A stretch of 63,570 nucleotides of DNA, filler included, from a bacterium (GTDB taxonomy: Bacteria > UBP15 > UBA6099 > JAJRTR01): NCBI GenBank assembly GCA_024278215.1. It is 6 parts of 6 records of this genome, joined end to end, with 100 filler letters (N's around TTAATTAATTAA, not from the genome) between each part and the next. Parts side by side here need not be neighbours in the genome. Positions count along the whole stretch, not along the records: positions 34,517 to 38,636 come from JAJRTR010000049.1; 5 more parts are not named here. One strand, written 5' to 3'. The position numbers and the translations under genes were made by a program. The notes under the pieces were generated by a model that saw nothing but the letters and a program-made list of their open reading frames with translations, made no database searches and was not told where the DNA came from. Shown here one piece after another: positions 1,693-60,517 of the stretch (positions are counted from its first letter, which is position 1; the number at the start of each line of letters is the position of its first letter).

Positions 1693-2211
1693 TCACTCCT
1701 CCAGCTTCCTGAAACCGATCTTGCGCTGATCCTTTTCGGGCGGGATCATGAGTTGCCGGATCGCGTCGAATACCGCTTTGAACTGGGAGTCGTACTTATT
1801 CTCCAGTTCGTCGAGCCTGCCTGCCAGGGCTTTGTTGGACTCCAGCATTCGGCGCAGGCGGACAAACGCCCTGACGACCTGGATGCTTGCATTGACGGCT
1901 ATTTCACTGTTCAGCACACTGGCAAGCATTACTGCTCCATGTTCGGTGAAGGCGTAGGGCGGCGTTCTGCGCTTCATGAGGTTTGTGGTCGCAAATTGCG
2001 ACCTCAAGCGTTTGAACTCTTTCTCTGTTAGCTGGAACATGAAATCCTTCGGAAACCGGTCATGGTTTCTTTTCACCTGCTCGTTCAGGCGTTTAGTTGT
2101 AACGCCATATATTTCAGCAAGATCGGCATCCAGCATATCCTTCTGTCCACGGATAAGCAGGATTGAACGTTCGATGCGTTCGTCTGGTATCAGAGCCTTA
2201 CTTTTTGCCAT
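1693..2211 (-). CDS. ORF6N domain DNA-binding protein
   Basis: IRGQKDMLDADLAEIYGVTTKRLNEQVKRN..RFPKDFMFQL, PYAFTEHGAVMLASVLNS, C-terminal RKIGF. Confidence 0.9.
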   Translation of the reverse strand: MAKSKALIPDERIERSILLIRGQKDMLDADLAEIYGVTTKRLNEQVKRNHDRFPKDFMFQLTEKEFKRLRSQFATTNLMKRRTPPYAFTEHGAVMLASVLNSEIAVNASIQVVRAFVRLRRMLESNKALAGRLDELENKYDSQFKAVFDAIRQLMIPPEKDQRKIGFRKLEE

Positions 2212-3805
2212 ATCCTACCACCTTTAAGTTCTTCCTTATCACTTTTTCCAGCTTTGCCGATTCCGTGAATTGTTCTTCAAGTTTCCCGGTGAGCCGCTTC
2301 ATCTTTTCCTCGAACGGTTCATCGTCGCTATCATCAATTTCTTACGCGCCGACGTATCGGCCAGGGGTGAGGATATGACTGTGTTTTCGGATGTCTTCTA
2401 TTGTCGCGCTCATGCAGAAACCGGGGATGTCTTCATACTCTCCGGCGTCCTTGTCACCGCGCCATGCGTGGTACGTGCCAGCGATCTTTGCGACATCTTC
2501 ATCCGTGAATTCACGATGAACCCTGTCGATCAGTTTGCCGAGCTTCCGGGCGTCAATGAACAGGGTTTCTCCGCGCCGGTCGCGGAAGCGCCCGTTTTTC
2601 TTGTCACGAGCTATAAACCATAGACATGCTGGAATTGGGGTCGAGTAAAACAACTGGCCGGGGAGTGAGACCATGCAGTCTACGAGGTCGGCTTCGATTA
2701 TGTTTTTCCTGATCTCACCTTCGCCGGACTGATTGGACGACATGCTGCCGTTGGCGAGTACGAAACCGGCAAGGCCGTTTGGGGCGAGATGATGTATGAA
2801 GTGTTGTACCCAGGCATAGTTGGCGTTTCCGGCAGGCGGGAGACCGTACTTCCAGCGGGCGTCGCCGCGGAGTCTATCGCCGCCCCAGTCGCTGTCATTG
2901 AACGGTGGATTGGCGAGTATATAGTCGGCCTTCAGGTCTTTGTGCAGGTCGTTGTGATACGTGTTCGCGTTTTCCGGACCAAGGTTGCTGTCGATGCCGC
3001 GAATGGCAAGATTCATTCGGGCAAGCCGCCACGTGGTGGGGTTCGACTCCTGGCCGTAGATGCTGATGTCGCCAACGTTACCGCCGTGAGCGGCGGCAAA
3101 CTTTTCGCTTTGCACGAACATACCGCCTGAACCGCAGCAGGGGTCGTACACACGGCCTTTGTACGGGGCAAGCATTTCGACCAGTACCTGGACCACACAG
3201 CGGGGAGTATAGAACTGGCCGCCCTTTTTGCCTTCGGCCCCGGCGAACTGTGACAGGAAGTACTCATACACCCGCCCGAGAATATCCCTGGAGCGGTTTT
3301 CCTTGTCTCCCAGGCCGATGGTGCCGATGAGATCGATTAGTTCTCCAAGCCGCTGCTTGTCGAGAGCGGGCCGCGCGTAATCCTTGGGCAGCACGCCTTT
3401 TAGTGTGGGGTTCTCCCGCTCGATGGCAACCATGGCGTCGTCGATGATCTTGCCGATGGCGGACTGCTTTGCGTTGGCCTGAAGGAACGGCCAGCGGGCC
3501 TCCTTCGGCACCCAGAATATGTTTTCGGCGACATACTCGTCCCGGTCCTCGATGACGTGGTAGCGAGCTGTTTCTTCCTTGACATACCAATCGCTGGACG
3601 AGTCGGCGGTCCAGAGTTCCAGTTGCTCTTTACGTTCCTCGAAAGCATCGGATATATACTTGAGGAATATCAGGCCAAGCACGACGTGCTTGTACTCTGC
3701 GGCGTCCATATTATTGCGCATCTTATCGGCAGCGGCCCACAGAGTAGCCTCGAATCCGAGGTTCGCCCCGGTGCCGTTCCCGGTTTTCTTATTCTTACGA
3801 GCCAT
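2198..3805 (-). pseudogene. hsdM: Type I RM methyltransferase subunit with an in-frame premature TAA at 2342-2344 (real mutation or sequencing error)
   Basis: Motifs [19 protein letters not shown]. After TPGRYVGA* the same frame continues EIDDSDDEPFEEKMKRLTGKLEEQFTESAKLEKVIRKNLKVVGYGKK* (stop 2198-2200), the usual HsdM C-terminal helix. Confidence 0.85.
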
Positions 3806-4262: not shown

Positions 4263-6704
4263 TCAGAAGCACCCGGTACATTCACCGCTGGCGTCGAGCT
4301 TCAGTACCCATACATCTGAATTTCCGGCCCCGTATGAACTGGTGACGCCTGCTACGATATAACCGCCGTCAGTGGTCTGCTGAATGGATTCCGCTTCTTC
4401 GTTGCTCGTACCACCAAGTGTGTTGGCCCATGTCTGCGAACCACTTGAATCGAGTTTCAATATCCAGACATCTTTATTCCCGGCCCCGTATGAACTTGTG
4501 ATACCCGCTACAACGTACCCGCCATCAGTGGTCTGCTGAACAGAATTCGCTTCATCATCGCTTGTACCACCATAGGTTTGAGCCCAAACCTGATTACCGC
4601 TTGAATCCAATTTCAGCACCCAGGCATCTTTCCCGCCTGCGCCTTCCGAGTTCGTGTGTCCGGCAGCTATATATCCTCCATCGTCCGTCTGTCGAATGGA
4701 GTTCACGGTATCATCGCCTGTCCCTCCGTATGTGTTGCTCCAAGCCAGGGTGCCGTCGGAATTCAGTTTTACCACCTTTAACTCCTCTTTGAACGAGTCG
4801 TATACCATTCCGGCAACTATGTATCCATAGTCTGTGGTTTGCTGTACCGAGAATGCGCCCTCGCCGGAACTTCCTCCGGAGGGGTTGTACCATGACCACA
4901 CCTGAGAACCACCGGAATCGAGTTTCGAAACCCAATCCCAATTGCCAGCACTGTATGTCTCGACAATCCCCGACACGATATATCCGCCATCGGATGTTTC
5001 ACTTATGGATGTCGCCATCTCACTGCCATATGTTCCTATCGTCTTGTCCCAGGTCTGATTGCCGACGGAATCGAGTTTCACTATCCAGTAGTCGTCACTG
5101 CCTGCGCCGTATGAGTTCGTGACGCCTGCGGTTATATATCCACCGTCCATTGTCTGTTGTATAGAAAAGGACTGTTCGAAGTTCGCGCCGCCAAGGGTCT
5201 GCGTCCATACCTGAGTGCCGGTCGCACTCAGCTTAATGATGTAGAAGTCGTAGTTTACAGGTTCATCAATCGGGTTGACATATCCGGATACGATATAACC
5301 TCCGTCCGTTGTCTGCTGTACCGAGAATGCCTTTTCATAGTCTGTACCTCCAAACGTTTTTGCCCATACGTCGGAGGATTCGGTCTGACATGTGGATGAA
5401 CAGCCGTCGCCATCGGCGGTGTTGCCGTCGTCGCACTGTTCGCTGTTGCTTGAGTCCACTGTCGAGTCGCCGCAATATGATGTTGCACCGGCGACTGATT
5501 GGCATGTGGAATCGCAAACGGTGCAGGATGTCTGTCCGTAATCGCACGTTTCGGTTGTCGTATTACCGTCATCGCAGTCTTCACCGTTTCCGGTGTCGGT
5601 CGTGCTATCACTACAGTAGGATGTGGAGCCTGCAACGGACTGACACGTTGAATCGCAAACGGAGCAGGATGTCTCTCCGTATGTGCAAGTCTCCGTCACG
5701 GTGTTGCCGTCATCGCAGTCCTCGCCGGTTTCCACGGTTCCGTTTCCGCACACGGTTCCCTGGGTGACGGTGACGGGAGTATCAACATCGTCGGTGATAC
5801 TGCCGTCGACGCGGCAGCCCGGCGTGAAGTCGCCGATACCGTACACGCATTCACCGATGTTGCCGGAAGAGATTTCATACCACAGGGCACCGCTGCTGTC
5901 GCATCTGTGTTCGAGGGTGGTGGCCGTGCCGCCCGATACAGTGCAAGTGACGGTGAACACGGTGTCGATTGTGCCTGTTGCCGGGGAAACTGATGCGGTT
6001 ATTGATATCGCACTGCTGGATGTCACAGATATTGTTACCGTATCCTGGCGGGTAGCGCCGTCATTGTCGGTCACGGTCAGCGTGGCGGTGTAGCTGTCGG
6101 CGGTGCTGTAGGTATGGCTTGGACTCTGCTCACTGCTCGTCGAGCCGTCGCCGAATGTCCACGAATAGGACGCGATTGTGCCGTCCGAGTCTGAACCGGA
6201 GCCTGTGAACTGGATAGTGAGCGGAGCAGTGCCGGACGTGACATCGGCTTGAGCGGAAGCGGTGGGCGACTGGTTCACGTCCGAATCGGAGCCGGGTGTT
6301 AACGCGCCGTCGGTGGAGCCTTCCGGTGTTACTGTTACGATGACGCTTGCAATCACCGTGACGCTGATCTGCATCGTCTGGTAGCCGCTTTTTGTGATCG
6401 ACACTACTTGAGCTCCGACTGTGACTCCGGACAGAATGTAGTACCCGTTCGAGTCCGTAGTCGTGGTCTTTCCATCACACTGAACTGTTGCTCCGGAAAG
6501 CGCTTGATAGCCGGATGGCGCGGCTCCGGCAGATCGTTTTCCAGTTACCCGTCCGGCTTCGGATGGCGCGTAGACGTATCCGGCGATACTGCCGGTGGAT
6601 TGTATCGCTACGCCACGGTCGCCACCGCCTCCTCCGCAGCCTGCCGAGTACAGCGCGGCTGTTACAATCAGGAGTACAACAATATGGAATCTTGAGTTTT
6701 TCAT
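4263..6704 (-). CDS. Multidomain surface lipoprotein: carboxypeptidase-regulatory-like domain, PKD, Myxococcus-type Cys-rich repeats, C-terminal beta-propeller repeats
   Basis: Lipobox LYSAG-C plus poly-Gly. PKD signature YSWTFGDG..SSEQSPSHTY. CGNG/CDDGN repeats. About 7 W-x-x-T-x-GG...DGGYIVAG repeats. Confidence 0.85.
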   Translation of the reverse strand: MKNSRFHIVVLLIVTAALYSAGCGGGGGDRGVAIQSTGSIAGYVYAPSEAGRVTGKRSAGAAPSGYQALSGATVQCDGKTTTTDSNGYYILSGVTVGAQVVSITKSGYQTMQISVTVIASVIVTVTPEGSTDGALTPGSDSDVNQSPTASAQADVTSGTAPLTIQFTGSGSDSDGTIASYSWTFGDGSTSSEQSPSHTYSTADSYTATLTVTDNDGATRQDTVTISVTSSSAISITASVSPATGTIDTVFTVTCTVSGGTATTLEHRCDSSGALWYEISSGNIGECVYGIGDFTPGCRVDGSITDDVDTPVTVTQGTVCGNGTVETGEDCDDGNTVTETCTYGETSCSVCDSTCQSVAGSTSYCSDSTTDTGNGEDCDDGNTTTETCDYGQTSCTVCDSTCQSVAGATSYCGDSTVDSSNSEQCDDGNTADGDGCSSTCQTESSDVWAKTFGGTDYEKAFSVQQTTDGGYIVSGYVNPIDEPVNYDFYIIKLSATGTQVWTQTLGGANFEQSFSIQQTMDGGYITAGVTNSYGAGSDDYWIVKLDSVGNQTWDKTIGTYGSEMATSISETSDGGYIVSGIVETYSAGNWDWVSKLDSGGSQVWSWYNPSGGSSGEGAFSVQQTTDYGYIVAGMVYDSFKEELKVVKLNSDGTLAWSNTYGGTGDDTVNSIRQTDDGGYIAAGHTNSEGAGGKDAWVLKLDSSGNQVWAQTYGGTSDDEANSVQQTTDGGYVVAGITSSYGAGNKDVWILKLDSSGSQTWANTLGGTSNEEAESIQQTTDGGYIVAGVTSSYGAGNSDVWVLKLDASGECTGCF

Positions 6705-6717: not shown

Positions 6718-7563
6718 TCAGTATTGTTTTCGGAACGACAGACTGCCCATCGGGGAGCCCAGGTCGTCCACGTCGTATGCGCCGGCGTTTATATAGCCGA
6801 CGTCTCCCAACTTGAATGCGAGACCGACCGACAGCGCGTCGTCCGCGCAGGCCGTGCAGTCTATACCTGCACCGGGCAGGATTACGTTGTTGAGAATCAG
6901 CTTGTGGAAGTCGTACTCGGAATAGTCGGCGTAGATCACGAGTTCGGGGTTCACCGCGTACTGCAGCGATGCGAACATGCCGGTTTCCTCCGGCAGGTCG
7001 CCTGTAATCCAGTTCACACCAATATTGGCACGGGCGCGTCCATATTCGAAAGCGAGTGCCGCATAGGGTTGTGTGAAATCTACATCCGCGCCGCTGGACT
7101 GGCCGAAGTACATCATGCCGCCGAGTGCTATCTGGCCGTTCCAGGGCATGCGCACAATCCGGTTGTCAGGCACCCACTTCACGCGCACCACGTCAGCGGA
7201 ATGTGTAAAACCGGTGTCGCCGGTTGGTCCGTGAATGGTGACGTCGTATTCCTGTCGGGCGTAACCGATCTGGAATCCTTGAACGCCCACGAGCGCGTAC
7301 ATATTCGCGCCCTCTGCGTGGACGCGCAGCCCGTCCGCAGAAACCTTTCCAACGGTACCGAACAGCACGTAGTCCGTCCCGACAGTCACATCAGTGGGAA
7401 CCTGTGTATCGCTGGAAAGCATCTGCGTGGTGGTATCGAGCGGAGTGATAGGCTGGAACGCCTCATAGCTGTAAGGTTCAACGCTGTCCGACGCCGATAC
7501 CGAGATCGCAATCAGCAGCATTTGCATAAGTATGATAATGAACAAAGATTTTGCATGATGCAT
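6718..7563 (-). CDS. Secreted, probable outer-membrane beta-barrel protein
   Basis: Signal peptide (ISVSA), amphipathic strands, C-terminal aromatic residue (SLSFRKQY), RBS AAGGAGG. Co-oriented and 13 bp from the lipoprotein gene. Confidence 0.6.
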   Translation of the reverse strand: MHHAKSLFIIILMQMLLIAISVSASDSVEPYSYEAFQPITPLDTTTQMLSSDTQVPTDVTVGTDYVLFGTVGKVSADGLRVHAEGANMYALVGVQGFQIGYARQEYDVTIHGPTGDTGFTHSADVVRVKWVPDNRIVRMPWNGQIALGGMMYFGQSSGADVDFTQPYAALAFEYGRARANIGVNWITGDLPEETGMFASLQYAVNPELVIYADYSEYDFHKLILNNVILPGAGIDCTACADDALSVGLAFKLGDVGYINAGAYDVDDLGSPMGSLSFRKQY

Positions 7564-7866: not shown

Positions 7867-8631
7867 CTACCACCGAAAGCATTCGGAAACAAAGTCACAC
7901 GTGGGACATAAAAACCCGCGATTGGGGTAGAATCGCTTATCAGCAATAGCGTGTACAACCTGCTCGATAGTCCGGTACATGCGGTCCCATTGTTTTGGGC
8001 CTCGTGTTGTTTCTAAGACTTGTACACGAGGTTTTTTGTTTTTCACGATGATGTTATAGCGGCACGCGCCCTCGTCGCGCCCATCCTGTTGTGCAACCAT
8101 GTAGGTGTAAATGTCGGCCTGCAGCGCGGTGTCGACCTGGAACTGTGACCATGAGGAACGTGAAGTTTTCAATTCTGTGATCGTTCCGTCAGCGTCGAGC
8201 CTGTCGAGGTAGCCCAGCAGTTCTACTCCGGGTAGTGTTTCCCCGGTGACAGGGTTTGTCAGGGAAGATCGGAGTTCCAGTTCCACGGCCATGGGCGTCA
8301 CAATGTTTTCGCTGATTGAATCGACATACGCTTGCACTAACTTCGTTCCCTGCGCCTGCATGTCCTCGGGAGTGGTTCCGTTCGACCACTTCACAGGCAC
8401 TGTCGTTCGCGCCGTCCAGTCCTCCTCGAACGCCTTCTCCAGTTCTTCGGTCGTGAGTGGCTTGCCTGCCATGTGGCGACGGTAATAATGGGCAATGGTT
8501 CCGTGGACAGCCGAACCGAGTACCAGAGCAGGTGACACTTTCTCCGGCACGATGCCTTTTTCATACTTGAAGTAGTAGGACAGTGCGCATCTGAGATAGC
8601 CGTCAATTCTTGAATACGATAATGTCAACAT
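7867..8631 (-). CDS. PD-(D/E)XK RecB/AddB/Cas4-like exonuclease with probable 4-Cys Fe-S staple
   Basis: LSYSRI..YLRC, GSAVH, GYLDRLD...ELKTS, Q-x-x-x-Y, C-terminal CPTCDFVSEC. Start reassigned to ATG 8631 after AGGAGG. Confidence 0.85.
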   Translation of the reverse strand: MLTLSYSRIDGYLRCALSYYFKYEKGIVPEKVSPALVLGSAVHGTIAHYYRRHMAGKPLTTEELEKAFEEDWTARTTVPVKWSNGTTPEDMQAQGTKLVQAYVDSISENIVTPMAVELELRSSLTNPVTGETLPGVELLGYLDRLDADGTITELKTSRSSWSQFQVDTALQADIYTYMVAQQDGRDEGACRYNIIVKNKKPRVQVLETTRGPKQWDRMYRTIEQVVHAIADKRFYPNRGFLCPTCDFVSECFRW

Positions 8632-8689
8632 TTTGCTTCCCCTCCTTTCACAGGAGAGGACTTGATGCCGCCCCCTCCCGTGGATTCGT

Positions 8690-9595
8690 TTATGCTGCGA
8701 GTAGTGTTGAAGCATACCGTTCCATGTCCGACTGTTTCTGTGGCTGGAATGCCTGCGCCGCTCGCGTGATCGAATTCACTGCATCGAACAGGGTGCGGCC
8801 TCCGTGATACTCACGGTTCGCTGACCGGACAACCCTGTCGGCTGCCGTGTGTCCCATCGCGCTCGCGACGCCGGTGATGATCTCGGCTTTGTCGCCAGCA
8901 GTCAGGTACCTGCTTCTTGCCCGGTCCATTCGTTCAAGGTACTCATGAGAGCGATTTAATACCGTGTTTAGGTCGGGCAACTGAATTTCATTATTGCCCA
9001 GGTGCATCCAGCGGGATCTCATTATGTCTCCGACAGGTACCATCATGCCGTTGCTGCATATCCAGCGATATACGCCAGCGTGAACCTGCAAACTACCCTG
9101 ACCGTTTTCCGAATTCGTGAACTCAATCATCGGAGCCAGTTCGCCGACTTGCGCTGAGGTTGGAACAAGTTTCACTTTCGTGAGATCAAAACTGAGTGTG
9201 TAGTTTACGGGCATCAGGCCGATGCCGCTGTCCTGTGCCGATTGCAATATGTCGAGCAGCATGATGTTGTCGAGCTTTTTGTACCGGGGTGAGACAACTC
9301 CGTAGAGAGTGTTATCGTGGAACCGGTACAGACGCTCGGTCTCACCCTGCTCTCGACTCAGACGGTTGAAGATGATAGCCCTCTCGACAGGTGTCAACCT
9401 CTCGCGCCAAAAGTCGGTGGGAATCCCGCACTGTACGCAAAGCTGTTTTATTGCTGTGCCGGTCACCCTGACTGGTTTATTCCTGAAGTAGAACGAGCCG
9501 TTGCCATATATGATGTCACCGGTTGTTGCATGTTCGTCATGCTTCGCTGCATCGTTGGCTTTCAGTTGCTGTATGAGTCCTTCCATCTTGTTCAT
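8690..9595 (-). CDS. DUF932-family phage/plasmid protein
   Basis: GVVSPRYKKLDN, NSENGQGSL...YRWICSNGM, H-x-G, TLFDAVNSITRAAQ. RBS GGGAGG before ATG 9595. Confidence 0.75.
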   Translation of the reverse strand: MNKMEGLIQQLKANDAAKHDEHATTGDIIYGNGSFYFRNKPVRVTGTAIKQLCVQCGIPTDFWRERLTPVERAIIFNRLSREQGETERLYRFHDNTLYGVVSPRYKKLDNIMLLDILQSAQDSGIGLMPVNYTLSFDLTKVKLVPTSAQVGELAPMIEFTNSENGQGSLQVHAGVYRWICSNGMMVPVGDIMRSRWMHLGNNEIQLPDLNTVLNRSHEYLERMDRARSRYLTAGDKAEIITGVASAMGHTAADRVVRSANREYHGGRTLFDAVNSITRAAQAFQPQKQSDMERYASTLLAA

Positions 9596-9680
9596 AGTTA
9601 TTCCTCCCATAAAAGTTCAGGGCCGAGAGCATTGATTCGCTCCCGACCCCGTATTTCTGTGTTATTGCTGTGCTACTTGC

Positions 9681-9845
9681 TTACTCAGCCTCTGCTGGCT
9701 GCGGGTCTTTCTCCGCCTTGCGTTTCCTTCTCAGCGTCAACCAGCGTTCAGTTAAATCGTTGCCGATTGTGAATCCGATTGCGCCCAGGAACGAACAGAC
9801 GATGATGGCGATGCCGATGCAGACATACTTCATAATTGTGCTCAT
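9681..9845 (-). CDS. 54-aa single-pass membrane peptide (below the ORF-track cutoff)
   Basis: AAAGGAG RBS. Sequence MSTIMKYVCIGIAIIVCSFLGAIGFTIGNDLTERWLTLRRKRKAEKDPQPAEAE. Co-oriented with neighbouring genes. Confidence 0.65.
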   Translation of the reverse strand: MSTIMKYVCIGIAIIVCSFLGAIGFTIGNDLTERWLTLRRKRKAEKDPQPAEAE

Positions 9846-9922
9846 AACGAGTCTCCTTTTTTGATAGATAAACAGAGGGCCGAAAAGGCATAAGCGCCCC
9901 TCCGGCTCCTGCTGTCTGGGGG

Positions 9923-10384
9923 TCAGATAATAGCTCGCGAAAAGTCGAGAAGCTTTTCAATGACTCTTGATGCGTCGCGTCTCGATATGTTCGCTGTGGA
10001 ATCCATACTGCACTGATTTCTCAGCCAGGCACGCGCTTCTTCTTTGCTGTCAAAGTTCTCGTCGAACAGTTTGCGCAGCATATTGACTTGCTTTTCAGTG
10101 GCTTTGTAGCCGTTGCCGTTTCCATTACCACATGACGAGCCACCGTTACGCCCGTTGCCTGAATTGCGTGACTGTGAACTGGACGGGATTGCTGTCGATG
10201 GTACGGTGCCGGACGCGCCGCCGTTGATCTGGCGTTGCACAGCTTCTCGCGCCTGATGGAATAGGTAATCTGCGATCTGGTCAACGTTGTTGAATTCGCT
10301 TTCTGCTTCGATAGTGACCATGTAGGTTTCGTTCTCATAATCACCGGTTGACACTTTCTTCGTGAAGTTTGCCAATATCTTCAT
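9923..10384 (-). CDS. Hypothetical mobile-element protein with Gly/Asn linker and a C-terminal ATEKQ...DASRVIEKL helical module
   Basis: RBS GAGGAGG. The C-terminus resembles the small helical domains seen on phage/plasmid recombination proteins. Confidence 0.6.
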   Translation of the reverse strand: MKILANFTKKVSTGDYENETYMVTIEAESEFNNVDQIADYLFHQAREAVQRQINGGASGTVPSTAIPSSSQSRNSGNGRNGGSSCGNGNGNGYKATEKQVNMLRKLFDENFDSKEEARAWLRNQCSMDSTANISRRDASRVIEKLLDFSRAII

Positions 10385-10563
10385 CTCTGTACTCACCTCC
10401 TCGTTTCAAGATTATGAGCAGTTGCTAATGACGTGCTCAGGTCGCATCGGCTCGGTAGTAGTCAGATAAAACCGATCCGAATTCACAACGTTCTTATGGA
10501 AGTTTTTCGGGCTTTTAATTAGTGGGGTACGGACAGTTTCGTGTCATTGTCCAGGACAGACAT

Positions 10564-11556
10564 CTATGCTGTGACGTACGTGTGGTAGAGAATAGAATCC
10601 GGGTTATACTCAGCCTCCAGATACATTCGATCCACATCGTCCAGCCAGGCCTCGAATGCGTCCTGCTCCCGAAGTTCGGCCATGCGCTCACGGTAGCTTT
10701 TCACTGGTGTCTGAACCGGTGCTGCTTCCTCGGACAGGGTTTCACCGATGTACTCCTCGACATCTGCGCGGAGGAATTCCAGCATGGCTTCGTCGTGGTG
10801 TGACTGACGTGGCAGACGCGGTCGCGCATGTCTCCTGCTGCCTGCCGCCTGTCCAGTCCATCCACTACCGTAATCGAACGCCAGGCAAGCCTCCTGTTCC
10901 TTCCATGCGAAATCCACGCAGCCGGGAATATTTCGTTCCTCTCCATATACATCCTCTGTGGTGAGCTTCGGGCAAAAGCGATCCATCACCTCGTACACCA
11001 GCTTGCGCTCTGTCGTCATTGTCCACTCCGGGTCAATCCAGTCAGCACGTTCGTATCCCGTGATCGCCGGGCGGATACCGCTGCCACTGCATCGGAAGCA
11101 TGAGCCGGTATCGTGTTCGCCGTTCCTGCGGGTGAAGTGCGCCACGCCTGAGCCTCCGCATCTCCGGCAGGTGGGATACACCTGCACGAACTCCATGCGT
11201 GGTTTTCCATCCAGCATCGCGTCCCAGGCTTCCCACACCGGATCGCGCAGTTCCACCGACCAGTCCAAGCCTTCCTGCGTGGCGTCAATCGCCTCGAACA
11301 GCGATTCGGGCAACCTGGACTCCACCGAGCAGGCTACGTAAGGCTCCGGCACGTGGGGCGGGACGGATACGGCGTACCCCGTTTGCGCCACCAGCCACCG
11401 GTGGGTTTCACCGTCGTCGCCTACTGCTGCGAGTTCGGCGCGTACACTATCTTCGAATGCTGAATGCTTCCGGCAGCGGTCGTTGTTATCGACACCGCCT
11501 CCGATACTACCTTGGTCCATCGTGGATACAAACCACTTACACTGTCTACAATTCAT
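10564..11556 (-). CDS. Hypothetical protein with DnaJ-type CxxCxGxG zinc-finger pair and N-terminal CxxC
   Basis: CRRCGGSG and CFRCSGSG, CRQC at the N-terminus, RBS AAAGGAGG. Confidence 0.65.
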   Translation of the reverse strand: MNCRQCKWFVSTMDQGSIGGGVDNNDRCRKHSAFEDSVRAELAAVGDDGETHRWLVAQTGYAVSVPPHVPEPYVACSVESRLPESLFEAIDATQEGLDWSVELRDPVWEAWDAMLDGKPRMEFVQVYPTCRRCGGSGVAHFTRRNGEHDTGSCFRCSGSGIRPAITGYERADWIDPEWTMTTERKLVYEVMDRFCPKLTTEDVYGEERNIPGCVDFAWKEQEACLAFDYGSGWTGQAAGSRRHARPRLPRQSHHDEAMLEFLRADVEEYIGETLSEEAAPVQTPVKSYRERMAELREQDAFEAWLDDVDRMYLEAEYNPDSILYHTYVTA

Positions 11557-12619: not shown

Positions 12620-12797
12620 GAGCCGATTGCAAAATTCTGATTCTGGTGCGGTCGGCTGCTATTGTCCATAGCTGCGTTGTCGGCACAAAATCGTCCTCGA
12701 CGTATTCTACAAGTACGTCTGCGGGGATTTTACACCTCCGCCTTCTTCTGAACATTTTCGCTCGACCTCGCTACGAACATAATTTCGCAATCGGCTC
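12620..12797. mobile_element. MITE family 1, copy A (178 bp)
   Basis: TIR GAGCCGATTGCAAAATT/AATTTCGCAATCGGCTC, with TTA on both sides. Confidence 0.85.
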
Positions 12798-20893: not shown

Positions 20894-21072
20894 GAGCCAA
20901 TTGCAAAATTCTGATTCGGCGGCGGTCGGCTGCAATTGTCAACAGCTGCATTGTCGGCACAAAATCTTCCTCGACGTACTCTACAAGTATGCCTGCGGGG
21001 ATTTTGCACCTCTGCTTTGCTTTAGACCAATTTCGCTCGACCTCGCTTCGAACATAATTTTACAACTGGCTC
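20894..21072. mobile_element. MITE family 1, copy B
   Basis: GAGCCAATTGCAAAATT...AATTTTACAACTGGCTC, with TTTG on both sides. Confidence 0.85.
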
Positions 21073-24815: not shown

Positions 24816-24915
24816 NNNNNNNNNNNNNNNNNNNNNNNNNNNNNNNNNNNNNNNNNNNNTTAATTAATTAANNNNNNNNNNNNNNNNNNNNNNNNNNNNN
24901 NNNNNNNNNNNNNNN
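24816..24915. other. Artificial contig linker
   Basis: N-run/TTAATTAATTAA/N-run, 100 bp. Confidence 0.98.
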
Positions 24916-26149: not shown

Positions 26150-26318
26150 GAGCCAATTGTAAAATTATGTTCGTAGCGAGGTCGAACGAAATTATTCAGA
26201 AACAAGGCGGAGGTGCAAAATCCCCGCAGGCGTACTTGCAGAGTACGTTGAGGAAGATTTTGTGCCGACCACGCTGCTGTTGACAATTGCAGCCGAATCA
26301 GAATTTTGCAATTGGCTC
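26150..26318. mobile_element. MITE family 1, copy C
   Basis: Same TIRs, AAAA on both sides. Lies between convergent genes. Confidence 0.85.
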
Positions 26319-27486: not shown

Positions 27487-27592
27487 GAGCCAATTGCAAA
27501 ATTATGTTCGTAGCGAGGTCGAGCGAAATTATTCAGAAGCAAGGCGGAGGTGTAAAATCCCCGTAGCAGAATCAGAATTCCGCAATTGGCTC
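27487..27592. mobile_element. MITE family 1, copy D (internally deleted, 106 bp)
   Basis: Both TIRs retained, AAAA flanks. Sits in a divergent promoter region. Confidence 0.85.
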
Positions 27593-29735: not shown

Positions 29736-29913
29736 GAGCCAATTACAAAATCATGTTCGTAGCGAGGTCGAGCGAAATTGTTCAGAGCAAGGCGGAGGTG
29801 TAAAATCCTTGCAGGCGTACTTGTAAAGTACGTCGAGGACGATTTCGCGCCGACAACGCAGCTATGGACAATAGCAGCCGACCGCAGCAGAATCAGAATT
29901 TTGCAATTGGCTC
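29736..29913. mobile_element. MITE family 1, copy E (178 bp)
   Basis: Same TIRs; flanks TGTA/GGTA. Confidence 0.85.
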
Positions 29914-31484: not shown

Positions 31485-32912
31485 TTAATGCCCATTCCAC
31501 ATCTCGAGGCGGTCGCGGTAGTAGACCTCGATGGCCTCCAGGTTCTGCCAGCCCTGGCCCTTGAGCAGGTTCATCACATTCACGGCGAAGAGTTCCTGCA
31601 CAGGCAGATAGCGGTCATAAACATCATAAGGGTCGCCCCGGGTCTCGTCGGGGGTGTCGTCGAGTCCGACGATGAGGTAGACATAGTAGAGGACATACTG
31701 GTTCATATCGGAGTATCCGCTATCGGAAAGTGTGACGGTGGTGGTGTGCAGACCGTCGATAGTCGACGTCCATGTTTCCGTGATGGACGCCGTTGTCCTG
31801 TCGATGAGATAAGAGTGAAGCGGCTGGTCGTCTTTTTCGATATTGACTTTCACTTTGCCGCTGATCAGGGTTTCATCCTTTATCAGTTCTACAAAAAGGT
31901 AGGGCTTTGTTTTGCCTTCTTTATAGAAGAAGCGCTGGAGACTGTTCTGGTCCGGGTCGAGCATCTTGATGTATGAATCCATGAGAGAGCTGGAGCCGAG
32001 GAAGAATTTGCAGAATTCGGCGGAAAGCAGGTAGGCGATGCCGCCGACCGTAGCGCCGTCTGCGCTCTTGAGGTGCGCCCACTTCATCTGTGCGAAGTCC
32101 AGCCACATGGGATAAGTGCCTTCGTTCTCATCGATATAGAGGTCGCCGTCGTTGTCGCCCCCCTGGTAGAAACGGAACTGGCGGCGACCGCTCTCGATAC
32201 AGTTGAAATCACAATTCACCGTTATGTCCACTTTATAGTAGCTGCCCCATGAGTCGGTGCCGTTTTCGGCGACAACCTTGTAATCATATTTGTATGTATC
32301 TAAAGAATACAGAGAACCGAATATCGTGTAGTCGGGAGTGGTGAGAGAACGGGCGCGTTTGATGCTGTAGGGGCTGGAGTGCGACAGCGCCGCGCAGACC
32401 CTGTTGCCTGAATAATCCGGGAGGGAATCCATATACTGATCGAGCGCGGGTCCCGTGACGATCTCGAGTTCGGCAGGAGAATAGCCGGTGCCTGAAGCGG
32501 AGATGCAGAACCGTGTGCCGGAGACGAACGGCAGACCGTCGGGCTGTATGTCGTAGACCTTTCCGATCAGTCCGGACGGTCGGCCCGATGTGTAAAACCG
32601 TTCGGCGACAGTCACAGTCTGGGTATCCGCAAGCGATGCTTCGAGCATGGCGGAACCGGCGAGAATGGTAGTGGTGACAGGTCCGACATCTGTGGAAGCA
32701 AGCGACTTAAGCGCATATACGCCGGAAGCAGCGACAGGGTCGGACGCATCGCCGCCGCCCCCTCCGCAGCCCGCCGCCGCAAGCAAAACAGCGACCAGAA
32801 AAACACTTAACGCCGCTCGTGATAATGTTGATTCCGTGATGGCCCTCACAATATAAGATTCTAACACAGATTGTTCCGGGAAGAAACCTCTCATCAAGTG
32901 AGCCGATTGCAC
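31485..32912 (-). CDS. Lipoprotein with ZU5-like domain (true start probably downstream, e.g. GTG 32849)
   Basis: LAAAG-C-GGGGG lipobox; VYDIQPDGLPF...LSHSSPY. Confidence 0.7.
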   Translation of the reverse strand: MQSAHLMRGFFPEQSVLESYIVRAITESTLSRAALSVFLVAVLLAAAGCGGGGGDASDPVAASGVYALKSLASTDVGPVTTTILAGSAMLEASLADTQTVTVAERFYTSGRPSGLIGKVYDIQPDGLPFVSGTRFCISASGTGYSPAELEIVTGPALDQYMDSLPDYSGNRVCAALSHSSPYSIKRARSLTTPDYTIFGSLYSLDTYKYDYKVVAENGTDSWGSYYKVDITVNCDFNCIESGRRQFRFYQGGDNDGDLYIDENEGTYPMWLDFAQMKWAHLKSADGATVGGIAYLLSAEFCKFFLGSSSLMDSYIKMLDPDQNSLQRFFYKEGKTKPYLFVELIKDETLISGKVKVNIEKDDQPLHSYLIDRTTASITETWTSTIDGLHTTTVTLSDSGYSDMNQYVLYYVYLIVGLDDTPDETRGDPYDVYDRYLPVQELFAVNVMNLLKGQGWQNLEAIEVYYRDRLEMWNGH

Positions 32913-34194: not shown

Positions 34195-34268
<74 letters not shown>

Positions 34269-34416: not shown

Positions 34417-34516
34417 NNNNNNNNNNNNNNNNNNNNNNNNNNNNNNNNNNNNNNNNNNNNTTAATTAATTAANNNNNNNNNNNNNNNNNNNNNNNNNNNN
34501 NNNNNNNNNNNNNNNN
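34417..34516. other. Artificial contig linker
   Basis: N/TTAATTAATTAA/N. Confidence 0.98.
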
Positions 34517-35270
34517 TTCTTTCCTCTTTGTTGTACACGATATGTCCGATATAGATTTCGTTCCGGAGCATGCGCGAGAACGAAGCAGCCCTCCATTTGT
34601 TGCCGCGAACGGTCGGGATGCTATTATCGTTCAGCCACTTACAGATCAATTTATATCCTTTCCCGTCGGCATACATCTCAAAGATGCGTCGCGCGAGCGG
34701 CGCGGTAACCGGGTCCGGTTCCCATTTCACGCGCCTGTGGCCGTTGTCTTTGACTTCGACCCTTTTGAAACCGAATGGCGGCGGTCCACCCGTGGAATAG
34801 CCGTTCCTTGCAAGATATTTCTTACTGCGCTCGACATCTTTCACATACTCGAGCCGCGAGAATTCGGCGACAGCGCGGAGAATCTCGATTATCAGTCTGC
34901 CCAGAGAATCCTCGGTATCGAACGGTTCTTTGTAATAGAAAATGGAGATGCCGCGCTCTCGCAGTTTTTCGGTGGCGATGTATGACTCCATCGTGTTGCG
35001 CCCGAACCGGGACACAGACCAGGTGAGCACCAGGTCGAACGGTGGCGGCTTGATCTGCGAATCTTTCAGCAGGCGGGAGAATTCCGGTCTCTTGAACGAG
35101 CCGCCGGATTTCACGTCTGCGTAAACCACGTAAACGGGTTTGCCGCGGCGCGCCGCCTCCTGCTTAAGAGTTTCGATCTGGGATTCGATGGAAAGCCCCA
35201 CATCCGCCTGCATCTGCGTACTGACACGTACATAGATGGCGCACGGCCTGATGATTTTCTCATTCTTCAT
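34517..35270 (-). CDS. Large serine recombinase (3' truncated by contig end)
   Basis: YVRVST catalytic Ser, SG...RPEF, SRFGRN, GGPPPFGF, recombinase domain W...MLRNEIYIG. Confidence 0.92.
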
Positions 35271-35991
35271 CCTTTGCCTCCCCTCCTTTTAAGACACAGG
35301 TTACCTCTGAATCTGAAATAGATGAAGCCGTTTCAGAGATGTCCTGGGATGGTTGGAGTCCATGCTTCGAGGTCACAACCAGCTCCCGCTGATCGGTTCC
35401 GAAAAATTCATTGAGTGTGTTTTGTATGTATTCAATATCGACCATGAAAACCCGCCCCATAGAAAATGTTTTTAGGACATCGCATCCGGCAGCGCATTTC
35501 ATTCGGCGATGCGAAGCATGAAATCATGTCCTGATATCTACACCCCGGTTTTCAGGGGACGACTGGACAAAGTTTTGAAATTATTTTGAGAAAGGCGATT
35601 GGAGCTGGGGTATCGATTCGGGGCAAAATCCGGATCGGCAGCAATTCGGAAACGAGGATTATCTTGCTCGGATCGGGGCGATCCTGTAAAATCCGGGTAG
35701 TAGGAAGTCAGTAAAATGGATAGGTCGAAAGACGGAGGCGATTACCCGCAGGCGCGGTCAAGCCGGCAGACTGCGATTCTGTAACAAAGCGTGAGCATCA
35801 GGCGGTCTGGATTTAGTGAAAGTTATTTGACAGAATTTTAGAAATCATAATGCTGTTCACATCCATAGAGTTTTTATATCTACGTCTTGCCTCAATGTGA
35901 ATTGTTTATTTGCTTGTGATACGATGAAAAAAAGCCCCTGCTTGTATGACAGAGGCCTGTTTTGAGTTTGTTGATAATAATCTTGTAAAGA

Positions 35992-37629
35992 TTATTGTGT
36001 CGCAGCAGCATACCAATATTGAGTTACGCAGGTTGTGAAATCGCAGGATTGTCCCGATTGCGGTGTGTAAACCCTGCTGATGTTTCCCGCAAGGGAGTCT
36101 GTACTAACGGAGGGTGCGCTGCTGTTGAGTATATATCCCCTTACAGTTGTTTTCTCATCAACCTGGCATGAACCGATGGTCGTTTGCGTTGTCCCCTGTC
36201 CAACGAAAGCGTTTCCTGCAATAGTACCAGTGATAGTAGGAAGGCTCGCTCCGTTCAGAGTTCCGGTCAGGGTGCCTGAGTTACCGCTTTTTGCGAGCGT
36301 CACCGAAATGTCGTGGGTGTCCTGAGCAGAAATTGAATCGTTACATGAGCTGTATGCAACATACGCTCCGGTTGTTGAGGAGTAAGAACCGGCGATATTC
36401 GATGTAGCGCCAGATGGTATCAACGTGCCGCCTAAAACTGCGGCGTTTAAGTTGTCGATGTCTGAACCGGAAGAGTCTGTAAAATAAACCCTTCCCAATC
36501 CTCTGCAGGACCAATGAGTATATGTTGCTGAGTCTGAGCCCTCGGTAAATGAAACAACAAATTTCAAACAGTCGTTATAGGTTCCAGCATTAACTGCTTT
36601 CATCTCTTGGGTTACAGTCGTTGTAGCAGTGAGAGATGTATCTTGGCTCCCATTTGAGTGAGAAACGGTGGCAGTAATATTCCAGGATTCTCCACTAGTC
36701 ATATTCGCCTTACCGAACAACAGCGGTGGCGAGTAAGTTTGAAGATCATTTGTGTCATTGCTAAAGATACCATACAGATACAGATTCCCGCTGCTGTCAA
36801 AGGCGAAGTAATCAGTGCTGTCTCCATCATATCTTCCATATGTTGTCGTGCCGTTTATTGTTTTTGTCTCAATGAAACCCATCACAAAAGGATATTCACT
36901 CCTGCTGGTGTCGGGCAAACCTTCATCAAAGCTCCAAATGTCCCCAACGGCAATGGTCTCATAATCTGCAATATCAATCGAACTGCCCGACGAAGAGTAG
37001 CTTGATACATACATATCGAGGTTTGATGATATGGCGGAGTCGTTGTCCAGAGTGGCGACACAGCCGTTGACAGTCGTCTGGCCGGTCAAATCAACACTCG
37101 CCGCATCGTTTTCAACCTGTGTTTGAATTGAAATAATTTCTGTCACCGTAAAATTCGAAAGCGCCTGGCTGCTTGCAACTATTTCCGAAGTCACAAGCTC
37201 AGTTATTGGGTTGATGCTTACAGAAGTAGAGGTCACAATTGCCCGCATCTGGACATTATCTGAAGAATCTACGGCAGCAACAACCAGGTTGCTTGCGGTG
37301 CTTACGCCCACGGGCAATACCAGGCTGTATATGCCCGAACTGTTACTTTCACCGGATGCCAGAAAATCCCCGGACCTGTCGCCGTTATCATCAATAAGGA
37401 AAGCCTTAATGGTGACATTTGCCCTGAAAACAAAGTCGCTATGCACAGAATCGGCCGCTGAGCGCCCGGCTGATCTGCCAAGAGAAACTCCGGATGGTGC
37501 GCTGACAGTACCTGATATAGTTGTGCCTGTCGGCGTCGCTGTCCCCCCGCCACCGCCGCCGCCGCAACCGGCGAAAATAAGCGCGAGACAAATTACAGCA
37601 GTCGAAATACCAAGTGATTTTTTCATCAT
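35992..37629 (-). CDS. Ser/Thr-rich surface lipoprotein
   Basis: LIFAG-C-G8 lipobox; TISGTVSAP beta-sandwich; INPITEL; V-x-AGTY..C..GLG motif domain. Confidence 0.85.
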   Translation of the reverse strand: MMKKSLGISTAVICLALIFAGCGGGGGGGTATPTGTTISGTVSAPSGVSLGRSAGRSAADSVHSDFVFRANVTIKAFLIDDNGDRSGDFLASGESNSSGIYSLVLPVGVSTASNLVVAAVDSSDNVQMRAIVTSTSVSINPITELVTSEIVASSQALSNFTVTEIISIQTQVENDAASVDLTGQTTVNGCVATLDNDSAISSNLDMYVSSYSSSGSSIDIADYETIAVGDIWSFDEGLPDTSRSEYPFVMGFIETKTINGTTTYGRYDGDSTDYFAFDSSGNLYLYGIFSNDTNDLQTYSPPLLFGKANMTSGESWNITATVSHSNGSQDTSLTATTTVTQEMKAVNAGTYNDCLKFVVSFTEGSDSATYTHWSCRGLGRVYFTDSSGSDIDNLNAAVLGGTLIPSGATSNIAGSYSSTTGAYVAYSSCNDSISAQDTHDISVTLAKSGNSGTLTGTLNGASLPTITGTIAGNAFVGQGTTQTTIGSCQVDEKTTVRGYILNSSAPSVSTDSLAGNISRVYTPQSGQSCDFTTCVTQYWYAAATQ

Positions 37630-37765
37630 TCTCTACCCCCTTGATTTTTTATAAAATTCGCATGGCGAACATAAAACGCATAAACGTTATAGAAAACAGA
37701 CTTTAAGAATTTCTCTTTGAATTCTTTACCTGGAAGTGATATTGGATAGAGGTCTACTAAACCTG

Positions 37766-37915
37766 AAAGGGCAGACCCCGGTTGCGCAACAAACGGAATG
37801 TGCCGATCACTCAGCGACCGTTGTTCCGAGGCTGCCCCAAAAAGCAGCTCAGGGTCGCTAGTGAATAATAAGATATGGTGGCACATATCCATAAAAAAAC
37901 TCCGTTCGTTGCGCA
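37766..37915 (-). ncRNA. Putative structured leader RNA, copy 2
   Basis: 15-bp P1 (37783-37797/37901-37915), P2 (37872-37889), P3 (37807-37819/37853-37864), core CTGCTTTTTGGGGCAGCCTCGG, tail CCGGGGTCTGCCC-TTT. Confidence 0.7.
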
Positions 37916-37921
37916 GTCGAT

Positions 37922-37930
37922 ATTATATCA
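37922..37930 (-). promoter_or_regulatory. Extended -10 promoter (TGaTATAAT) of leader copy 2
   Basis: Same motif and position as in copy 1. TTGACG lies further upstream with a short 14-bp spacer. Confidence 0.65.
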
Positions 37931-38181
37931 TAGTAAATGGGCGTCAACACTGTTTTCAAAAAATTTTTCAAGGTATTTGTCGCTGAAGATTACCTCGTCG
38001 ATTTTTAAGGAATCCGAAGGCGTCGGATTGGTGTGGAATACCATTAAGACCGGACATAATTTCCTGTAGCGAAATTGGCATGATTGCAGAGGGTTTTTCC
38101 CCCATGTTTCCCCTTCCTTAAGACACTTCACTATTACATTTACAGACAGCTCCATCGAAGAAGTTTTATGAGCTGTATCTG

Positions 38182-38293
38182 CTGGGCAAGTTTTTCAAAA
38201 ACGCGGGCAAGAATCCTGAAAACGCGGGCAAAAAGCCCCAAAATGCGGGCATGAACCGGGAATCTGCGGGCACGGACTTGTGTAATGCGGGCA
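38182..38293. repeat. Heptamer GCGGGCA array with exact 21-bp period (5 perfect, 1 degenerate)
   Basis: Starts at 38182 (CTGGGCA), 38203, 38224, 38245, 38266 and 38287; 14-bp spacers differ. Confidence 0.9.
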
Positions 38294-38354
38294 AAAACAC
38301 CTTATTTAACCTTGTTTTTTCGCTCGCCGGGCGTTCTGTGAGCATCCTGAAAAA

Positions 38355-38383
38355 AATATAGAAATATTTTCCCCTTTAGTCAA
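38355..38383 (-). promoter_or_regulatory. Sigma70 promoter firing toward the 21-bp array
   Basis: TTGACT-N17-TATATT. Confidence 0.55.
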
Positions 38384-38474
38384 GCCACTTTTAATATTCA
38401 CATCCAAACTTCCACACCGGTCGGCATTGAAATTGTCTATATAACCGGCAAATCTAATAAGGAGGATTTGCCGA

Positions 38475-38636
38475 ATGAACGTTGTCGAACTCCGTTGTAA
38501 CGACCCGAAATGCCAGTGTTCAAAGAAAGGGAAGCTGCTCGTCAAGCTCTATAACTTTCCCGAATCGGCCCGGGCCGAAGATGTGATCGTTGAAGTTCCG
38601 TGTCCCAAGAAGAAATCGAAAGTGGTCGGGTTGAAA
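38475..38636 (+). CDS. Small Com-like zinc-ribbon protein (3' end at contig break)
   Basis: AAGGAGG RBS; ELRC..CQC..KLL...EVPCPK. Confidence 0.55.
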
Positions 38637-38736
38637 NNNNNNNNNNNNNNNNNNNNNNNNNNNNNNNNNNNNNNNNNNNNTTAATTAATTAANNNNNNNN
38701 NNNNNNNNNNNNNNNNNNNNNNNNNNNNNNNNNNNN
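38637..38736. other. Artificial contig linker
   Basis: N/TTAATTAATTAA/N. Confidence 0.98.
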
Positions 38737-38877
38737 GCAATTGTCAACAGCTGCATTGTCGGCACAAAATCTTCCTCGACGTACTCTACAAGTACGCCTG
38801 CGGGGATTTTGCACATCCGCTTTGCTTTAGTCCAATTTCGCTCGACCTCGCTTCGAACATAATTTTGCAACTGGCTC
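38737..38877. mobile_element. MITE family 1, copy F (cut by the contig start)
   Basis: Near-identical to copy B; ends in GGCTC. Confidence 0.85.
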
Positions 38878-39078: not shown

Positions 39079-39349
39079 GGGCTGTGCTAGGCGGGGTGTT
39101 AGCGGTACCCTGTACCCGCAATCCGCTACAGCGGGGTTGAATCCCCGGTTGAGGCGCTGTCCTGTTCGGTCTGCCCCCGGTAAGCGGTGTTGAGGACCGG
39201 GCCCTGCGCAAGGAGCGCCCGTGAATCCCGTCAGGGTCGGAAGGCAGCAGCGGTAAGCGGTCACGTTCTTGTGCCGCAGATCAGCATGGTCTGAGCTGGC
39301 TGCCGGGGTAAGCGCGGGTGGGAAGTTGTCGAGGCCGGGTGCACAGTCC
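39079..39349 (+). ncRNA. ffs: Signal recognition particle RNA, long Alu-containing (Bacillus-type) form
   Basis: 5' GGGCTGTGC pairs with 3' GCACAGTCC. Alu region GCTAGGCGGGG..TAGCGGT..AATCCGCT. Helix 8 TCAGG-GTC-GGAA-GGC-AGCAG. Directly upstream of dnaX. Confidence 0.93.
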
Positions 39350-54739: not shown

Positions 54740-54839
54740 NNNNNNNNNNNNNNNNNNNNNNNNNNNNNNNNNNNNNNNNNNNNTTAATTAATTAANNNNN
54801 NNNNNNNNNNNNNNNNNNNNNNNNNNNNNNNNNNNNNNN
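54740..54839. other. Artificial contig linker
   Basis: N/TTAATTAATTAA/N. Confidence 0.98.
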
Positions 54840-60417: not shown

Positions 60418-60517
60418 NNNNNNNNNNNNNNNNNNNNNNNNNNNNNNNNNNNNNNNNNNNNTTAATTAATTAANNNNNNNNNNNNNNNNNNNNNNNNNNN
60501 NNNNNNNNNNNNNNNNN
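60418..60517. other. Artificial contig linker
   Basis: N/TTAATTAATTAA/N. Confidence 0.98.

Follow-up and report, generated by a model that had tools for sequence, protein, structure and literature searches.

The 63,570-nucleotide (nt) stretch of DNA analyzed here, referred to below as the window, comes from a bacterium of the GTDB lineage UBP15; UBA6099; JAJRTR01 (GenBank assembly GCA_024278215.1) and is composed of six contigs joined by five linkers of the form N44-TTAATTAATTAA-N44 (24816–24915, 34417–34516, 38637–38736, 54740–54839 and 60418–60517; ten runs of 44 N). One of the contigs (34517–38636; 4,120 bp) carries on its minus strand an extended -10 promoter element, a 150-nt structured leader RNA (37915–37766), which is the subject of this report, a gene for a 545-amino acid (aa) lipoprotein (37629–35992) that starts 136 nt after the RNA, and a gene for a large serine recombinase cut by the contig end (34517–35270; Pfam Resolvase 3.8e-27, Recombinase 2.1e-19). 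We refer to this RNA as copy 2, since another one, copy 1, is present on a different contig of the window (7759–7626, minus strand). Our analysis gives good support to the view that the element is a real RNA, whose architecture is unusual and whose association with genes is clear; its best explanation is an uncatalogued cis-acting leader RNA of approximately 110–160 nt that lies outside every Rfam 15 family.

Reading of the minus strand and inspection of the pairings recovered all the elements of copy 2 that had been proposed in an initial annotation of this DNA, namely the helices P1, P2 and P3, the core and the tail. The extended -10 element TGa-TATAAT (37930–37922) is separated from P1 by six bases, and transcription would start at the first base of P1 or 1–2 nt from it. 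P1 comprises 15 base pairs (bp), one of them G.U (37915–37901 with 37797–37783), and closes a three-way junction. The second arm is the P2 hairpin GAUAUG/CAUAUC (37889–37884 with 37877–37872), which is variable in the family and has a predicted counterpart in only some of its members; the third is P3 (37864–37853 with 37819–37807), which contains a small internal loop with U opposite GA and carries a conserved apical loop. This P3 loop (37852–37826) reads CUGAG-CUGC, U5, GGGGCAGCCUCGG. Its 5' side is a strand that mimics the tail and is the local partner of the core, here called the competitor strand (CUGAG-CUGC; 37852–37844); there follow the U5 loop (37843–37839) and the core itself, GGGCAG-CCUCGG (37837–37826), so that in DNA letters the segment CTGC-T5-GGGGCAGCCTCGG occupies positions 37847–37826. 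The 3' strand of P1 is followed by a linker of a single nucleotide, A (37782), by the tail CCGGGG-U-CUGCCC (CCGGGGTCTGCCC; as RNA CCGGGGUCUGCCC; 37781–37769), which forms a 12-bp pseudoknot with the core, and directly afterwards by the U-run UUU (37768–37766). Both the competitor strand and the tail can thus pair with the core. The predicted fold of copy 2 has an energy of -77.1 kcal/mol (z -7.2; 0 of 200 shuffled sequences equally stable), and the core-tail duplex one of -22.3 kcal/mol.

Copy 1 has the same plan, with a -10 box at 7771–7766, the core at 7694–7683, the tail at 7641–7630 and a UUUU run at 7629–7626, and its predicted fold is comparably stable (-83.2 kcal/mol, z -7.2). The two copies have unrelated sequences in P1, P2 and P3; what they retain in common is the -10 box, the core of the loop, a P1-proximal GCAAC and the tail. 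The initial annotation had regarded the two loci as bearing a common structured RNA with compensatory changes, and this was borne out by a direct comparison of the copies (nhmmer E 4.6e-5), by covariance models and by covariation across the whole family. Model R1, which describes P1 and P3 and does not contain the pseudoknot, scores 131.4 bits with copy 2 and 117.1 bits with copy 1. Model R2 was built from ten sequences, leaving aside both window copies and their closest relative, the metagenome locus L006; it nevertheless recognizes copy 2 with 117.6 bits and copy 1 with 93.3 bits. On the opposite strand R2 yields 14.2 bits (copy 2) and 23.6 bits (copy 1), and these reverse-strand matches arise because P1 is nearly palindromic. 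A full-sensitivity scan of the window with R2 detected the two copies only.

Relatives were sought by scanning an exact pattern that spans core and tail over collections of genomes, metagenomes and viral sequences. The genome collection yielded three loci, all of them real, while six of the 37 metagenome loci were accepted (L006, L013, L024, L029, L032 and L037), two of these (L013 and L024) being identical to L001 and one (L029) to L002. The 31 others were judged to be chance matches, to tRNA genes or other sequences, that have no -10 box, P1 or second half of the tail: nine were also scanned with R1, which gave only core-sized local matches at E>=0.66 in five and none in the remaining four, and 22 were judged by eye to be tRNA genes or G+C-rich, coding-like sequence. 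The only match of this pattern on a viral contig (L041) was likewise attributed to chance, R1 giving no full-length match there; a second, looser pattern found 0 loci in the viral contigs, and a blastn search in distant mode with copy 2 found no match in the phage and plasmid collections. R1 detected more diverged members as well: in L032 and in genome G002 it picked up a further copy each, the one in L032 arranged in tandem with the first, and it also found copies in genomes G004, G005 and G010. A further, weak model match (G006:C120, E 0.07) was rejected as it has neither core nor tail, and fragments matched the model weakly, at E 0.56–0.98, in G002:C2, G007:C21 and G004:C269. The family so assembled counts 13 distinct members: two in the window, seven in a small uncultured phylum, where six of 12 genomes carry the RNA, and four on metagenome contigs. 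A single order comprises genomes G001, G002 and G003 and makes up the entire phylum in the examined set of 12 genomes. Genomes with the RNA bear one or two copies of it; in G002 the two copies are on separate contigs, as they are in the window. The tandem pair in L032 consists of diverged copies (6787–6925 and 7023–7155, plus strand) that lie 97 nt apart, each with a -10-like box of its own, with one gene after them.

Comparison with Rfam 15 revealed no known family for this RNA. At gathering thresholds the whole window contains only a signal recognition particle (SRP) RNA and a tRNA; at E<=10 the region of copy 2 gives two chance matches, both outside the element and on the other strand; a permissive search of the copy 1 region gives one match of 14.8 bits, against a gathering score of 41; and six related loci give none at E<=1. 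A full-text search of the literature brought up the known motif-discovery papers and no description of the motif; sequences are not searchable in this way and supplements are not covered, so the motif may have been published before. A term search of a 2026 preprint (10.64898/2026.10.21.760802) gave 0 occurrences. The family is rare and so far limited to one small uncultured phylum.

Evidence for structure comes from covariation. MAFFT alignments A1–A4 and A6 misaligned P2 and P3, for which reason the analysis relied on A5, A7 and A8, whose alignment was guided by a model; pair counts were taken from A8, which was fitted to the model holding P1 and P3. In A8, both-sided changes are found in 12 of the 15 pairs of P1 (97.3% of cells paired) and in nine of the ten pairs of P3 (87.9% of cells paired). 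Taking all 37 pairs together, 90.6% of 466 cells are paired, compared to 72.6 +/- 1.2 in shuffled alignments, and 23 pairs show both-sided changes, compared to 13.8 +/- 1.8; these values were reached in 0 of 500 shuffles, and sliding the 3' partners by 1–3 columns reduced pairing to 37–51%. The pseudoknot appears only 84.6% paired in the raw columns of A8, because its second half is displaced by a one-base bulge in approximately half of the aligned sequences. In register, the 13 sequences with their 12 pairs each give 156 canonical cells out of 156, a value that 0 of 2000 shuffles attained. Compensatory changes occur at four of the 12 positions of this helix, which we label B5, B1, A1 and A5: B5 is G-C in four sequences, A-U in eight and U-A in one, L050 changes both sides of B1 and A1, and L045 both sides of A5. 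The long-range pairing of core and tail that had been claimed for the two window copies is therefore kept throughout the family; loss of tail complementarity in homologs, named beforehand as an outcome that would speak against the pairing, was found in none of the 13. The pseudoknot contains 21 G.U pairs and 0 A.C, and P1 and the pseudoknot combined contain 30 G.U (21+9) and 1 A.C, which indicates that it is the gene-sense, transcribed strand that folds, as expected of an RNA. No reading frame is open across all 13 members, and on this ground we rejected the possibility that the element is a coding sequence. Invariant bases in A8 are located in P1, core and tail, and the junction strands are variable.

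The core, which has the consensus GGGCRG-CCUCGG and makes up the 3' half of the P3 loop, can pair in either of two ways that exclude each other: with the loop's own 5' half, forming a hairpin that extends P3, or with the 3' tail. The initial annotation had noted that the core of copy 2 can fold locally as CTGC/GCAG and that this excludes the tail pairing. Such a fold is indeed predicted, and it excludes the tail in all 13 members, with the correction that it is larger than proposed: CUGAG-CUGC pairs with nearly the whole core of copy 2 in a hairpin of 9–10 bp (-13.9 kcal/mol). Across the family the local hairpin over the core bases has predicted energies of -8.9 to -16.7 kcal/mol and the core-tail duplex of -20.0 to -24.9 kcal/mol, and the competitor partner of B5 covaries with it (U with A, C with G, and U.G in copy 1). 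According to the energy models, the totals for the pseudoknot state range from 13.7 kcal/mol below to 1.1 above the nested minimum; they were obtained by adding the duplex energy to a fold with core and tail free, and omit a pseudoknot loop penalty, which ViennaRNA does not supply. On these estimates the two states are plausibly close in energy. Since the local hairpin and the tail exclude each other in every member, the earlier suggestion of a two-state device is a fair reading as far as energy models go. The geometry is also uniform. The linker between P1 and the tail measures 0–2 nt in 13 of 13 members, so that the pseudoknot helix could stack end-on-end on P1, with the 5' end of the RNA at the nick; P1 (11–17 bp) and P3 (~10–13 bp) are of similar length, and the P3 loop can therefore reach the base of P1. 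A run of 2–4 U directly follows the tail in every case.

The association with promoters and genes is equally regular. A -10-like hexamer is found 5–6 nt before P1 in all 13 members, preceded by TGn in 11 of them, and the conserved position of this box suggests that the RNA starts at or beside +1 of its own promoter. The next same-strand open reading frame (ORF) begins 37–136 nt after the RNA in 12 members; in the remaining one (L032b) the second RNA copy follows instead. In six loci (L001, L037, L049, copy 1, L006 and L045) this spacer is 43–63 nt long and could hardly accommodate a separate promoter. The N-termini of all 12 downstream ORFs have the character of a signal peptide, a lipobox or a membrane segment. 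A Cys-polyGly lipoprotein is encoded directly downstream of copy 2, L001, L003, L037, L002 and L049; a signal-peptide protein and then a large lipoprotein are encoded downstream of copy 1, L006, L050 and L048; L045 is followed by a membrane or lipobox-like protein, and L032a by its homolog with an added zinc ribbon. Among the RNAs that are followed by a gene, the last two diverge the most, and their downstream proteins are 52% identical. The statement in the initial annotation that the gene after each window copy encodes a Cys-polyGly lipoprotein thus applies to the direct neighbor of copy 2; at copy 1 such a lipoprotein is the second gene (813 aa, with PKD and CarboxypepD_reg-like domains; 4263–6704, minus strand), after one for a 281-aa secreted protein (6718–7563, minus strand). 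The 545-aa protein downstream of copy 2 (lipobox AGC, then poly-Gly) matches no Pfam or PHROG family, and its best score in a protein atlas (0.86) is to unnamed clusters that offer no lead; it is 36.5% identical over 178 aa to the lipoprotein downstream of L001. The large lipoproteins of the window (4263–6704 and 35992–37629, both on the minus strand) and of L037, L051, L052, L053 and L006 are mosaic: their N-terminal 80–195 aa are common, with 55–74% identity in most pairs, and their C-terminal parts are unrelated, some of them carrying PKD, NHL, DUF4215 or beta-propeller repeats. A third Cys-polyGly lipoprotein start (AAGCGGGGGGD) is present in the window at ~32700–32860 on the minus strand, with no leader upstream.

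The spacers between the RNAs and their genes have a C/G ratio of 1.58, compared to 0.88 in 27 control upstream regions. Such C-rich, G-poor sequence might serve as a Rho site, although the composition is only suggestive; Rho itself scores above its curated cut-off in eight of the 12 genomes of the phylum. In several members a stretch complementary to the first half of the tail occurs 15–45 nt downstream. We make no claim for this "anti-tail", given a mean z of -1.0 against shuffled spacers and only four of 13 members in which <=23 of 500 shuffles are as good.

The copies are generally situated on mobile or accessory DNA. The initial annotation had placed copy 2 in a serine-recombinase element and both window copies on mobile regions; the mobile setting holds for the family at large, but the serine recombinase adjoins copy 2 only, being seen at none of 11 other loci (Pfam on the immediate neighbors of six, reading of ORF lists for the rest). 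A three-gene module encoding a 157-aa protein (weak match to GemA, E 3.9e-4), a DUF932 protein and a PD-(D/E)XK nuclease is found upstream of copy 1 (7867–11556, minus strand), L052, L053 and L057. In L006 the nuclease is the only part of the module within the available stretch; identity across the five loci is 39–65%. The window module is preceded by a 330-aa protein of no known family. This module is the backbone of an unclassified mobile element. Elsewhere, L055 has near its RNA an ORF matched by a tyrosine-recombinase model, and L032, L051 and L056 have transposase-, integrase- or helicase-like ORFs, identified by eye only. The link to mobile or accessory DNA is thus general, and that to the serine recombinase is not.

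How could such an RNA work? The reading that we favor, tentatively and with slightly less than even confidence, is that of a switch located in the leader and acting in cis, with transcription attenuated by the pseudoknot together with the U-run. The pseudoknot state would be OFF, with a strong helix abutting the U-run and attenuating transcription either intrinsically or by freeing the spacer for Rho; the occurrence of Rho in eight of the 12 genomes and the composition of the spacers would make a Rho-dependent version possible. The local-hairpin state would be ON, leaving the tail single-stranded and allowing RNA polymerase to read into the downstream genes. On this view the switch would control genes, situated on integrative or mobile DNA, whose products are exported proteins and large surface lipoproteins, and the balance might be tipped by a small molecule, by a host factor or by the kinetics of folding. 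Direct masking of a ribosome-binding site is unlikely, as the distance to the start codon varies; the conserved U-run after a 12-bp G+C-rich helix, together with the 43–63 nt spacers, favors conditional attenuation with read-through.

Several observations weigh against an attenuating switch. The U-run is short, and the strands of the G+C-rich helix lie 41–58 nt apart with the intervening loop interrupted, an intrinsic terminator being a G+C-rich hairpin that has a short loop and a U-rich tract right after it. A consensus terminator scan detected no terminator in the copy 2 leader, and in a housekeeping contig of the same organism canonical terminator-like sites number 17, with 17.3 expected; since they are not enriched, termination by a hairpin plus U-run may not be used here at all. 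Transcription start, 3' end and any termination are all deduced from sequence. The C>G skew is missing in three of the 13 spacers, and the top control value (1.79) overlaps their range. As to the covariation, the fit of A8 to the model favors the pair counts of P1 and P3, the register of the tail was fixed by our own pattern, and the support for the pseudoknot comes from a few lineages only, because most of its positions are invariant (shuffle mean 148.9 of 156). Finally, with conserved bases mostly in helices and the junction strands unconserved, there is no evident ligand pocket.

By its working the RNA is closest to riboswitch-type attenuators with loop-to-tail pseudoknots. In the ZTP/pfl, c-di-GMP-II, preQ1-III and fluoride riboswitches, the attenuators concerned, a 3' tail pairs with a hairpin loop. 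The leader shares with them its location in the 5' region after a promoter, a multi-helix fold, a covarying pseudoknot between loop and 3' tail, a competing pairing, a U-run after the 3' strand and an association with a coherent set of genes, here those for exported and surface proteins. It differs from them in that it has no match in Rfam 15, its junctions are unconserved, its helices are conserved in sequence, no pocket is evident, and the pseudoknot is unusually long (12 bp) and would itself be the terminator helix. Of the features by which a riboswitch is recognized, a covarying structured domain in the 5' untranslated region was found, mutually exclusive pairings were found in all 13 members (by energy models only), and conserved unpaired pocket nucleotides were not found in A8. 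By its topology the RNA is closest to flavivirus exoribonuclease-resistant RNA (xrRNA): both have a three-way junction in which the apical loop of P3 pairs with a single strand 3' of P1, and a geometry that puts the 5' end inside the fold. In contrast to xrRNA, the leader is bacterial, about twice the size and placed at +1 of an mRNA; no ring pseudoknot from the 5' end to the junction is seen here (no systematic search was made for one), and the competitor hairpin and the U-run have no counterpart in xrRNA. We assign the RNA to neither group. The resemblance brings up an extended version of the switch, in which one pseudoknot does two jobs, acting as a conditional stop and burying the 5' end on P1 in the manner of xrRNA, with a host signal, a small molecule or a protein, that flips it and lets integrative mobile elements time the display of their large, mosaic surface lipoproteins; we consider this possible, if rather doubtful.

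The element could instead be a stand-alone or dual-function small RNA (sRNA), a full transcription unit acting in trans, with core or tail as the surface recognized by a protein or another RNA and its position before surface genes secondary. Every member has its own promoter box and a 3' end made of a helix plus U-run, the helix sequences are strongly conserved beyond what pairing demands, and the L032 copy at 6787–6925 precedes a promoter and a second copy rather than a gene. Tandem copies are known among cis riboswitches as well; the short spacers in six loci show no evident second promoter, orientation and adjacency to genes for exported proteins are kept in 12 of 13 members, and divergent RNAs retain homologous downstream genes, as is typical of cis elements. 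These points make an sRNA unlikely in our judgment. We also consider improbable a constitutive 5' stabilizer, in which P1 at +1, with the pseudoknot stacked on it and the 5' end buried, would guard the lipoprotein mRNA from 5'-end-dependent decay with no switching. It would account well for the distance of 5–6 nt between the -10 box and P1, for the linker of 0–2 nt and for the matching lengths of P1 and P3 that bring the P3 loop to the base of P1, and 5'-terminal stems do stabilize the ompA and aprE leaders, where too a helix is formed from the first transcribed bases of a long mRNA. But those stabilizers are simple hairpins, and a simple hairpin would suffice for the purpose, whereas the leader builds a pseudoknotted junction of 150 nt for which an alternative fold is conserved as well; neither the competitor hairpin nor the conserved U-run, both present in all members, would be explained, and RNase J reaches its cut-off in only two of the 12 genomes (RNase E/G and RppH were not searched for).

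The promoter-proximal position of a structured RNA on mobile or accessory DNA, before genes for proteins of 545–1159 aa or multi-gene units, also recalls processive antitermination RNAs such as HK022 putL/putR and Bacillus EAR, which act on long envelope-related operons. On this model the leader would remain attached to RNA polymerase, which could then resist terminators and Rho along the long, horizontally acquired operons for surface proteins; conservation of helix sequences would reflect contacts with a protein or the polymerase, and Rho is available in the phylum. Yet no Rfam family, those of known antitermination RNAs included, matches in sequence or structure at the permissive limits of E<=10 or E<=1, the architecture is different, nothing in our data bears on polymerase binding or modification, and put RNAs are not known for two-state pairing. 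We rate antitermination as quite unlikely. Far less credible still is a site that acts as DNA, such as an integron attC or another recombination site. The base of P1 (GCNNAAC...GUUNNGC) does resemble R''/R' boxes, for which the attC consensus is RYYYAAC / GTTRRRY: positions 6–8 of P1 are A, A and C paired with G, U and U in 11–13 of the 13 members, with the flanking R/Y pattern in some only, and copy 1 reads GCCTAAC...GTTAGGC. The three-way junction could then stand for the variable terminal structure of attC, an inverted repeat around a branched structure of ~110–130 nt would be alike in both, long attC sites being of a size compatible with the element, and the surroundings are mobile DNA. 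We nevertheless rejected this reading. Integron integrase IntI (TIGR02249) exceeds its cut-off in none of the 12 genomes, which have generic tyrosine recombinases only, as do 14 control genomes; there are no cassette arrays, only the one or two copies per genome; the upstream genes are a conserved backbone in five loci; the loop covaries with a partner that is external to the P1 inverted repeat; and the promoter box is at a fixed distance. attC sites, moreover, fold on the bottom strand, whereas here G.U and A.C counts (21+9 vs 1) point to the gene-sense strand, the reverse strand scoring 14–24 bits as opposed to 93–118.

If the attenuating switch is the correct reading, the family would constitute an orphan class of regulatory RNA in which a long pseudoknot serves as the terminator-like helix and has to compete with a mimic strand contained in the RNA itself. 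The phylum is known from metagenomes alone and its gene control is essentially unstudied. The link to exported proteins and surface lipoproteins on mobile DNA could offer a handle on the timing of envelope proteins (exclusion, adhesion, phage defence), and the RNA may provide a compact test case for pseudoknot-driven termination and for shielding of 5' ends. With only 13 distinct sequences, the general reach of these ideas is limited unless wider searches extend the family.

Other features of the window are of interest for the layout of the two loci. The tRNA-Met gene (34195–34268) and the SRP RNA gene (39082–39346) are on contigs other than that of copy 2, and as the window is made of joined contigs, the tRNA-Met gene and the serine recombinase, which a linker separates, are not shown to be neighbors in the genome. 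A direct-repeat array with a period of 21 bp and the core YGCGGGCA, discernible on both strands, lies at 38181–38293, ~250–370 bp upstream of the copy 2 promoter; Tandem Repeats Finder reports 2.8 copies at 38198–38255, and by eye ~six units extend to either side. It resembles a set of iterons or of binding sites for a regulator that would belong to the small recombinase-bearing element. Close to the end of the same contig, paired Cys motifs (CxxxxC ... CP) are encoded by a small ORF (38475–38636, plus strand) that is cut by the contig end; its 54 available residues have no match in Pfam or PHROG, and we take it to resemble the Com zinc finger of phage Mu. Beyond the lipoprotein gene downstream of copy 1, the genes at 381–3805 (minus strand) appear by eye, from their N-termini, to encode subunits like those of type I restriction-modification systems. 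Finally, the window contains a family of repeats resembling miniature inverted-repeat transposable elements, with units of ~105–180 bp that end in the 17-nt inverted terminal repeat GAGCCAATTGCAAAATT (12620–12797, 20894–21072, 26150–26318, 27487–27592, 29736–29913 and 38737–38877). The terminal repeat has 13 matches at <=3 mismatches, compared to 0.18 expected, and the last unit is cut by a contig start, which suggests that these repeats are probably the cause of some of the assembly breaks.

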